This document shows positions 30,724 through 31,770 of a stretch of 64,000 nt of DNA, piece by piece. How positions within the stretch are numbered: position 1 is the stretch's first letter; every line of letters begins with the position of its first letter. The stretch comes from Escherichia coli (GTDB lineage: Bacteria > Pseudomonadota > Gammaproteobacteria > Enterobacterales > Enterobacteriaceae): assembly GCF_003790525.1 (NCBI RefSeq), contig NZ_CP033635.1; one strand, given 5' to 3'. A model generated the notes under the pieces. That model saw nothing but the letters and a program-made list of their open reading frames with translations, did no database searches and was not told the origin of the DNA. The position numbers were made by a program, and so were the translations under genes.

Positions 30724-31770
30724 TTAGTACTGATTGAATATCTGCTGGATCTGCTGCGGATCTTTGGTTTGCGTCAGAGCCAGTTGCAGCAGAACACGTG
30801 CTTTTTGCGGGTTCAACGTGCCAGAGGCGACGAAGCCATATTTCGCATCATCCACTTCGGCATCCTGAGTGGTTGCTCCCGTCGGTACGCGGGAAGAACG
30901 CACTACCGCAGTGCCGTTTTTCGCGGCGGTCGCCAGGGTGTCAAACACGGATTTATACAGGTTACCGTTACCCACACCAGCGCTAACGATGCCATCATAG
31001 CCCGCATCTACCAGTGCTTTAGCCGGAAGATCGGATGCGTTAGCGTAGTTATAAACAATGCCGACTTTCGGCAGTTCATTCAGCTTAGAGACATCGAACG
31101 GCGTATCACTGGTGTGCTTACGTGCCGGGGTGCGCTGGTAGTCAATCTTACCGTTGTGAATGTAACCCAGAGGGCCGTAGTTAACAGACTTGAAGGTCGC
31201 TACGTTGGTGGTGTTGGTTTTAGTGACGTCACGGCCATCCAGAACAGTGTCGTTCATTACTACCAGTACGCCACGATTAGCGGAGGCTTTATCAGCTGCG
31301 GTAACTACCGCGTTATACAGATTGAAGGGACCGTCTGCGCTCATGGACGTGGACGGGCGCATTGCACCGACCATCACCACCGGTTTGTCACATTTCACCG
31401 TCAGGTCAAGGAAGTAAGCGGTTTCTTCCATCGTGTCGGTACCGTGGGTAATGACGAAGCCGTCGGTTTTATCGCAGTCGGTGTTAATTTTTTTCGCCAG
31501 TGTCAGCCAGACATTATCGTTCATGTCCTGGGAGCCGATATTCACTACCTGCTCGCCTTTAACGTTCGCAATGTCCTTCAGTTGCGGCACCGCATTAACC
31601 AGATTTTCTACGCCAACTTTACCCGCTGTGTAGTTAGATTTGGTTGCGGAGTCACCACCACCGGCAATGGTCCCGCCGGTTGCTAAAATGGTGATATTGG
31701 GTAATGCCAGTGCTGCACCACTAAAACCCATAACCAGTGCGGCAAGTGCCGTTCTTTTATAGAAATTCAT
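30724..31770 (-). CDS. ansB: periplasmic L-asparaginase II
   Basis: 348 aa ORF with signal peptide and the LPNITILATGGTIAGGGDS active-site region; very close to E. coli type II asparaginase as recalled; E. coli-like GC content unlike its flanks. Confidence 0.9.
   Translation of the reverse strand: MNFYKRTALAALVMGFSGAALALPNITILATGGTIAGGGDSATKSNYTAGKVGVENLVNAVPQLKDIANVKGEQVVNIGSQDMNDNVWLTLAKKINTDCDKTDGFVITHGTDTMEETAYFLDLTVKCDKPVVMVGAMRPSTSMSADGPFNLYNAVVTAADKASANRGVLVVMNDTVLDGRDVTKTNTTNVATFKSVNYGPLGYIHNGKIDYQRTPARKHTSDTPFDVSKLNELPKVGIVYNYANASDLPAKALVDAGYDGIVSAGVGNGNLYKSVFDTLATAAKNGTAVVRSSRVPTGATTQDAEVDDAKYGFVASGTLNPQKARVLLQLALTQTKDPQQIQQIFNQY

Follow-up and report, generated by a model that had tools for sequence, protein, structure and literature searches.

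How does a gene with all the appearance of an ordinary Escherichia coli core gene come to lie among AT-rich genes of clearly different ancestry? This question is raised by a 64,000-nucleotide (nt) stretch of E. coli DNA (contig NZ_CP033635.1 of assembly GCF_003790525.1; hereafter the window), in which an intact open reading frame (ORF) of 348 amino acids, located at 30724-31770 on the minus strand, encodes a type II L-asparaginase. We refer to this gene as ansB2, and to the neighbouring genes of the island that carries it in the same manner (dcuR2, dcuA2, aspA2). Based on alignments with core loci, composition, protein family assignments and the distribution of the locus among sequenced genomes, we propose that ansB2 is most probably a functional second ansB, derived from the Escherichia core gene and captured once into a mobile, foreign gene cluster as a coding sequence (CDS) from about codon 7 onwards together with its terminator, and without its promoter.

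A second copy of ansB

The product of ansB2 scores 704.5 bits against the NCBIfam equivalog for L-asparaginase 2 (NF008304, cutoff 506), with residues 1-348 of 348 covered, and its mature part (residues 23-348) aligns without gaps to the crystallised E. coli L-asparaginase II (EcAII; 6uod), the sole substitution being an N for a D at precursor position 189. This substitution falls on none of the catalytic residues of EcAII, which we take to be T12, Y25, T89, D90 and K162 (mature numbering), and both the catalytic residues and the tetramer fold of a type II L-asparaginase are predicted to be preserved. The precursor also begins with a predicted Sec signal peptide, MNFYKRTALAALVMGFSGAALA, which is followed by LPNITIL (read by eye from the sequence); its basic n-region is retained, and its h-region and cleavage site are the same as in the core protein. 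AnsB2 is, therefore, a predicted periplasmic asparaginase that displays every sequence feature by which members of the EcAII family are recognised.

The composition of ansB2 differs markedly from that of its surroundings. Its guanine-plus-cytosine (GC) content is 51.6%, and 56.7% at third codon positions (GC3), as against 34.3% and 26.9%, respectively, for dcuR2 on one side and 45.8% and 42.0% for dcuA2 on the other; the intergenic DNA on both sides has a GC content of 31.6-37.3%, and the neighbouring genes of 34-48%. The original prediction, made from the DNA letters of this region, had described an ansB gene with core-like GC content and its own terminator between AT-rich DcuR-like and DcuA-like genes, and the composition, the NCBIfam assignments and a terminator scan all agree with that description. 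It had also held that these are not the neighbours of ansB in K-12, and this is indeed the case, since the K-12 gene lies between yggN and yggM and ansB2 between dcuR2 and dcuA2.

From this unusual context it had been concluded that either a rearrangement had occurred or a second ansB copy had been recruited into an island, and that a search for another ansB copy with its native flanks would help to decide. A 10-kb stretch around ansB2 is 100% identical to the corresponding DNA of E. coli SMS-3-5 (NC_010498.1) and of a set of related genomes, and in that same SMS-3-5 genome the native ansB is found intact at record positions 3186489-3187535, with yggM and yggN on either side. Because the native gene is undisturbed, ansB2 is a second copy and nothing has been moved, which bears out the second-copy half of the proposal. 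The two copies differ at 48 nt (95.4% nucleotide identity).

The distribution of the locus is that of an accessory element. The core gene is nearly universal: of 5,426 complete E. coli genomes, all but one (5,425) have a match to ansB, and across the 5,429 matching records there are 226 ansB places in excess of a single one in each. The flank formed by dcuA2 and the adjoining spacer, on the other hand, occurs in 226 records from only 225 of the 5,426 genomes (about 4%), and the whole 10-kb segment in 175; this is not the usual ansB neighbourhood in related genomes, and the flank shows the variable presence among strains that is expected of a genomic island. Copies at least 99% identical to ansB2 are present in 204 records, every other best match being at 95-96% or lower. 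We note that the number of records with the flank (226) exceeds both the number whose best match reaches at least 99% over the full ansB2 (204) and the number that does so over its last 347 nt (200); the approximately 22 records without a full-length copy at this level may hold truncated copies, copies split by insertion sequences (IS), or partly converted ones.

The core-type cassette and its ancestry

Compared with the K-12 ansB (L-asparaginase II, EcAII; PDB 3ECA and 6UOD), ansB2 encodes the same enzyme with the same type of signal peptide and ends in a homologous terminator, but it lies in an island instead of between yggN and yggM, its upstream DNA is unrelated, its first six codons differ, and its nucleotide sequence has diverged by 5% overall and by 5-7% across the 3' two-thirds. 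In pairwise and multiple alignments, homology to the K-12 and SMS-3-5 core loci collapses upstream of CDS nt 19 and downstream of the terminator T-run (at about 30692), and the sole stretch homologous to the native ansB locus is a core-type cassette at 30692-31752 on the minus strand, reaching from nt 19 through the T-run. The 18 nt that precede it in the gene (31753-31770, minus strand) hold seven differences from core ansB (N2E, Y4F, R6K), AnsB2 starting with MNFYKR and the core protein with MEFFKK. Since these first 18 nt diverge while the following 344 nt differ from the SMS-3-5 core gene at a single position, the 5' junction must lie within the coding sequence. The MNFYKR start is confined to ansB2 alleles among the AnsB proteins sampled: the E. 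coli core-type proteins start with MEFFKK or MEFLKK, those of Citrobacter and Salmonella in the same 90% cluster with MEFFKK, MEFFRK or MDFFRK.

At the other end of the cassette, the terminator scan and folding identified an intrinsic terminator 3' of the ansB2 stop codon, composed of a 9-bp GC-rich hairpin (30696-30716, minus strand; GCCCCGGTAACGTGCCGGGGC) and a T-run. The hairpin folds at -26.8 kcal/mol (z = -5.8 versus shuffled sequences) and differs from the terminator of the K-12 and SMS-3-5 core loci by one loop base. By alignment, then, the terminator was captured together with the gene from a core-type locus and the promoter was left behind. No direct or inverted repeats, IS ends or integrase were found bracketing the cassette. 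Thirteen ansB2 alleles, from both chromosomes and plasmids, are all intact, share the same junctions and are 0-2 single-nucleotide polymorphisms (SNPs) apart; being essentially identical and identically joined, they point to a single capture event.

The substitutions accumulated by ansB2 are those of a gene under constraint. Relative to its own core copy, the synonymous divergence (dS) is 0.19 and the non-synonymous divergence (dN) 0.006; from codon 8 onwards, 40 synonymous differences and one non-synonymous difference separate it from the SMS-3-5 core gene, and dN/dS versus core alleles is about 0.01-0.03. These values indicate strong purifying selection on ansB2. With regard to ancestry, its nucleotide identity to E. 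coli core alleles is 95-96%, terminator included, and the AnsB proteins of Citrobacter and Salmonella are only 91-93% identical to AnsB2 at the protein level. By these identities, ansB2 is of the Escherichia type.

The divergence is, additionally, unevenly distributed along the gene. Over nt 19-362, about 2,900 genomes that do not have the island possess a core allele at least 99% identical to ansB2, and over nt 363-1080 ansB2 is 93.0-95.3% identical to the core alleles sampled, with only the 204 island copies reaching 99% there; the last 347 nt behave likewise. In comparison with the SMS-3-5 core gene, one difference falls in nt 19-362 (344 nt) and 40 in nt 363-1047 (685 nt), and the breakpoint obtained with the maximum chi-square method is at nt 362 (p of about 0.005 by permutation versus the SMS-3-5 core gene and 0.07 versus K-12), the same test between the K-12 and SMS-3-5 core genes being not significant. 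Among the alleles sampled, the 5' third lies within the allele diversity of E. coli and the 3' part outside it. It is likely from these patterns that ansB2 is a mosaic, which gene conversion between the two paralogues may have produced; nevertheless, we do not regard this as proven, because the core alleles themselves also vary less over the 5' third.

A scan of metagenomes with an ansB2-specific 26-mer returned six contigs, five of them from the island and one with the native context. The latter, a contig of 2265 bp from a human gut metagenome with the order yggN-ansB-yggM, shows the ansB2 states over nt 701-1047, has a coverage of 0.5x and contains a frameshift. It may represent a core allele that recombined in nature, or else a chimera of the two paralogues created in assembly at low coverage.

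The structure of the gene also lends itself to a different history, possible though doubtful in our judgement, in which the island originally had a foreign, more distant ansB homologue that was replaced beyond its first six codons by Escherichia core-type sequence. Such a homologous overwriting would have involved (and these details are just as tentative) one crossover in the conserved signal-peptide region, an illegitimate joint after the terminator and a later gene conversion refreshing the 5' third. The position of the 5' junction inside the CDS fits this history, as does the fact that MNFYKR retains the M-x-F-aromatic-K-basic pattern of MEFFKK despite 7 of 18 nt being different; the clustering of differences beyond the nt 362 breakpoint, and the combination of a 5' third shared with island-free genomes and a 3' two-thirds only 93-95.3% identical to the alleles sampled, are equally in line with it. 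However, no unconverted ancestor was found, all 13 of the 13 alleles sampled having the same structure, and no homology was seen at the 3' joint. Moreover, the lower variability of the 5' third means that rate variation explains part of the pattern, and the breakpoint is less well marked in the comparison with K-12 (p of about 0.07).

Neighbouring genes, expression and proposed function

In our preferred reading, the capture of a core-type gene and its terminator, ansB2 would be the only component with an origin among the core genes of Escherichia in what is otherwise a patchwork of foreign genes. It stands at the 3' end of a co-directional string, aspA2-dcuA2-ansB2. The first neighbour upstream, dcuA2 (32258-33592, minus strand), encodes a predicted C4-dicarboxylate/aspartate carrier of the DcuA/DcuB family (NCBIfam, 620 bits), and aspA2 (33748-35148, minus strand), directly upstream of dcuA2, a predicted aspartate ammonia-lyase (NCBIfam, 680 bits). 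Both are of the Sutterellaceae type. DcuA2 is 80-86% identical in amino acid sequence to its homologues in Sutterella, Duodenibacillus, Turicimonas and Parasutterella, and 67-75% identical to those in Helicobacter and Campylobacter; AspA2 is 72-89% identical to the Sutterellaceae AspA proteins, whose genes likewise lie directly upstream of a dcuA homologue. The DNA similarity to the Sutterellaceae loci (71-77%) spans exactly 32257-35171, which corresponds to the two coding sequences, and in none of 80 related loci was ansB or another island gene found beside aspA-dcuA, within the flanks covered. The core aspA-dcuA operon of E. coli has the same gene order, orientation and protein families, but its nucleotide identity to the island pair, whose closest relatives are in Sutterellaceae, is patchy and only about 68%, and no asparaginase gene follows it, as one does the island pair. 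These alignments establish a foreign, Sutterellaceae-like origin for aspA2-dcuA2.

On the other side, convergent with ansB2, lies dcuR2 (29405-30130, plus strand), which encodes an orphan DcuR-type response regulator (NCBIfam DcuR equivalog, 312.9 bits, cutoff 262). Among the ORFs of at least 30 amino acids in the upstream region (28427-29404), where only short ones are present, no dcuS-like ORF was found (no translated search was made), and dcuR2 is thus a regulator gene without the cognate kinase gene of a DcuS-DcuR two-component system. A search for DcuR2 homologues among 5.8 billion proteins, aimed at tracing an ancestral island, pointed to no donor: the close relatives are only island copies, and the nearest non-island ones are the core enterobacterial DcuR proteins, at 57%.

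From these assignments, ansB2 probably completes a route from asparagine through aspartate to fumarate. In this route, periplasmic AnsB2 would hydrolyse asparagine to aspartate, DcuA2 would take up the aspartate by exchange with a C4-dicarboxylate, and from the aspartate AspA2 would form fumarate and ammonium, for fumarate respiration or nitrogen supply. DcuA is characterised as an L-aspartate/C4-dicarboxylate exchanger in an earlier study (PMC10634366). A comparable system is the asparagine/aspartate catabolism of Campylobacter and Helicobacter, in which, according to a review (PMC3417520), the same three activities (AnsB, AspA and DcuA) feed fumarate respiration; the adjacency of aspA and dcuA is common to both, but ansB is not beside aspA-dcuA in the related loci sampled, and the asparaginase of the island is of the Escherichia type. 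As far as gene order and sequence comparison tell, the cluster differs from the known AnsB/AspA/DcuA systems in its gene linkage and in its mixed ancestry.

Given that the native promoter was left behind, the control of ansB2 must come from the island, and its expression would depend on island promoters and regulators, and not on the FNR/CRP-dependent promoter of the native gene. The spacer between dcuA2 and ansB2 (31771-32257, minus strand) is 487 bp long, has a GC content of 31.6% and shows no relationship to the promoter of K-12 ansB; nor does it match the Sutterellaceae loci, and the spacers gave only chance-level snoRNA matches to Rfam families. A strong Shine-Dalgarno sequence (AGGAGG) is located 5 nt ahead of the ansB2 start codon, and the terminator scan found no clear terminator after dcuA2 on the coding strand of the spacer. 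The simplest reading is that ansB2 is transcribed by read-through from aspA2-dcuA2. The best FNR-like site (35407-35420, one mismatch) lies upstream of aspA2; it is a consensus match in AT-rich DNA and no evidence of function.

Several observations weigh against a functional second copy serving this route. Scans of the coding strand of the 487-bp spacer for sigma-70, FNR and CRP consensus sequences gave nothing convincing, with a single, weak FNR-like match about 340 bp upstream of ansB2; as a control, the same kind of scan picks up an FNR-like site in the K-12 ansB promoter, which we take to carry FNR and CRP sites. Because the spacer has no convincing promoter, transcription of ansB2 is accounted for only by read-through from aspA2-dcuA2, and both its expression and its enzymatic role in the route are predictions. 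Furthermore, dcuR2, with no partner kinase gene, may be decaying, and the cluster is not indispensable, since it is often disrupted by IS elements. Finally, the donor of the 3' two-thirds of ansB2 did not appear among the records sampled from the 5,426 genomes, in which no core allele exceeds about 95.3% identity over that part.

The missing promoter would equally suit a redundant passenger gene that serves no function itself and is heading for decay, a fate that we consider improbable. The neighbouring genes of the island are often pseudogenes or disrupted by IS elements, and about 22 of the 226 island-bearing records have no full-length copy at 99% identity or above, as would be expected of a passenger. 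Decay is, however, difficult to reconcile with the low dN/dS versus core alleles and with an ORF that is intact in 13 of the 13 copies sampled. The exact AnsB2 protein, moreover, is found in 5,102 blocks of an assembly collection, and in the 10 contexts listed it is accompanied by aspA2 and dcuR2 in all 10 and by an intact dcuA2 in nine.

A common arrival of ansB2 and its AT-rich flanks from one non-Escherichia donor, a close enterobacterium, appears highly improbable. It is true that the cluster travels as one unit, both on plasmids and in islands, and that the UniRef entry of the exact AnsB2 protein is labelled Enterobacteriaceae and not E. coli, but the composition changes in a sharp step at the ends of the cassette, and the degrees of relatedness are discordant: ansB2 and its terminator are 95% identical to E. 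coli ansB in nucleotide sequence, as against about 68% for aspA2-dcuA2 and 57%, at the protein level, for dcuR2 relative to their core counterparts. Sutterellaceae-type aspA-dcuA loci, in addition, have no adjacent ansB. As for the other half of the original prediction, a rearrangement, which would mean that the native ansB was moved into the island and is the strain's only one, the unusual neighbourhood and the large inversion by which, to judge from the order and orientation of genes, SMS-3-5 seems to differ from K-12 in this region could be cited for it, but it was rejected as virtually impossible once the intact native locus, flanked by yggM and yggN and 48 nt different from ansB2, was found in SMS-3-5.

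The island, its mobility and its significance

The foreign cluster into which, as we favour, a core-type ansB was captured is part of an island which, in SMS-3-5, follows cobU and is near three tRNA-Asn genes; in the window these are at 8206-8281, 10030-10105 and 12439-12514, in the core stretch ahead of the island. The tRNA-Asn region is a known hotspot of island insertion. The GC3 of the island genes is 26-47%, versus 48-53% for the adjoining core genes cobT and cobS, with ansB2 as the exception at 57%, and the composition of the island is thus unlike that of the core genome. Its span comprises a TonB-dependent receptor, an argH-like lyase (23421-24803, plus strand), Dcu-family carriers at 24868-26184 (plus strand) and 26300-27658 (minus strand), a FadR/GntR regulator (27770-28426, plus strand), which like the preceding three was assigned by NCBIfam and RefSeq annotation, dcuR2, ansB2 and aspA2-dcuA2. 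Beyond these follow pepT2 (36014-37270, plus strand; NCBIfam), divergent from aspA2, dcuC2 (37267-38628, plus strand; NCBIfam), which overlaps pepT2 by 4 nt, a gene of the isoaspartyl peptidase/L-asparaginase family (40214-41275, plus strand; RefSeq annotation, GC3 26%) and a nucleoside hydrolase block; the span holds three Dcu carriers. The pepT2-dcuC2 pair lies next to aspA2-dcuA2-ansB2 in most of the contexts sampled. PepT2-DcuC2, the extra Dcu carriers, the argH-like lyase and the isoaspartyl peptidase/asparaginase are consistent with a wider theme of aspartate-family and C4-dicarboxylate metabolism. With the product of 40214-41275, the island encodes two asparaginase-type enzymes.

The association with mobility is apparent both inside and outside the chromosome. 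Remnants of IS elements and of a group II intron occur within the island, and the island, roughly 30 kb in size, is present at 98% identity on the conjugative IncFIB/IncI plasmid NZ_AP022088.1; of an 18.5-kb query, about 77% is found on four further plasmid records from E. coli, two of them with the same length and identical coordinates. The outer flanks of aspA2-dcuA2-ansB2 vary among contexts and are broken by IS elements. By these comparisons, the cluster moves between chromosomal islands and conjugative plasmids of E. coli.

Between the chromosomal and plasmid versions, the genes are near-identical and the intergenic DNA differs: some 70 bp are inserted or deleted downstream of ansB2 (30520-30600), and SNPs cluster in the divergent promoter region of aspA2 and pepT2 (35000-36000). 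The TonB-dependent receptor gene is frameshifted in the window and intact on NZ_AP022088.1. A GC spike (about 58%) at 38750-40000 corresponds to a group II intron fragment and maturase remnant, adjoined by a TnpB scrap; ltrA regions of E. fergusonii plasmids match the sequence of this remnant at about 95% identity. At the edge of the island, the regions at about 22000-22960 and 17588-19761 hold pseudogene scraps annotated as thioesterase, ClbP (of the colibactin island) and galactonate dehydratase, together with the frameshifted receptor gene.

A second aspartate module is present at 59297-64000, with hypT (59297-60196, minus strand), an Asp/Glu (cysteate) racemase gene (60536-61255, plus strand), a Dcu carrier gene (61314-62612, plus strand) and a second aspA2 copy, which runs from 62785 to the end of the window and is truncated by an IS3 element in the record. 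On plasmid pLR1-164k, the racemase-plus-Dcu block is joined directly to aspA2-dcuA2-ansB2. Judged by gene content, this block (60536-62612) is of the same kind as orf8-orf9 of the SRL pathogenicity island of Shigella flexneri (an aspartate racemase and a DcuA-like carrier), which is also a mobile module for aspartate utilisation in Enterobacteriaceae. The published text on that island (PMC6980539) leaves ansB and asparaginase unmentioned for it and covers a different module; we found no literature description of the ansB2 cluster, which apparently has not been described before.

The finding does not change any general principle, since islands and plasmids commonly carry paralogues of core genes, and in this sense it is unsurprising. 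It is nevertheless a clear example of a core housekeeping-type gene of which a copy entered the pool of mobile genes and came under new control, its precise junctions can be used as a marker, and it should be useful to studies of E. coli gut metabolism and of the assembly of the accessory genome. For enteric bacteria in the gut, asparagine and aspartate are regarded as important nutrients and as precursors of electron acceptors. A more far-reaching picture, which we offer as speculation and consider unlikely as a whole, is that of a complete catabolic module for asparagine and aspartate, transmissible by plasmids and put together from donors as far apart as gut Betaproteobacteria (aspA-dcuA) and Escherichia (ansB). 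In this picture, ansB replaced an earlier, foreign homologue beginning at codon 7, with sequence exchange with the resident core gene since then, and the E. coli lineages that carry the module, which are associated with humans, dogs and poultry, would gain a measurable advantage from it where the gut is anaerobic or inflamed. Independently of this picture, a mobile cluster that duplicates the whole route from asparagine to fumarate in about 4% of E. coli genomes, and that is also borne by conjugative plasmids, is a plausible fitness module.

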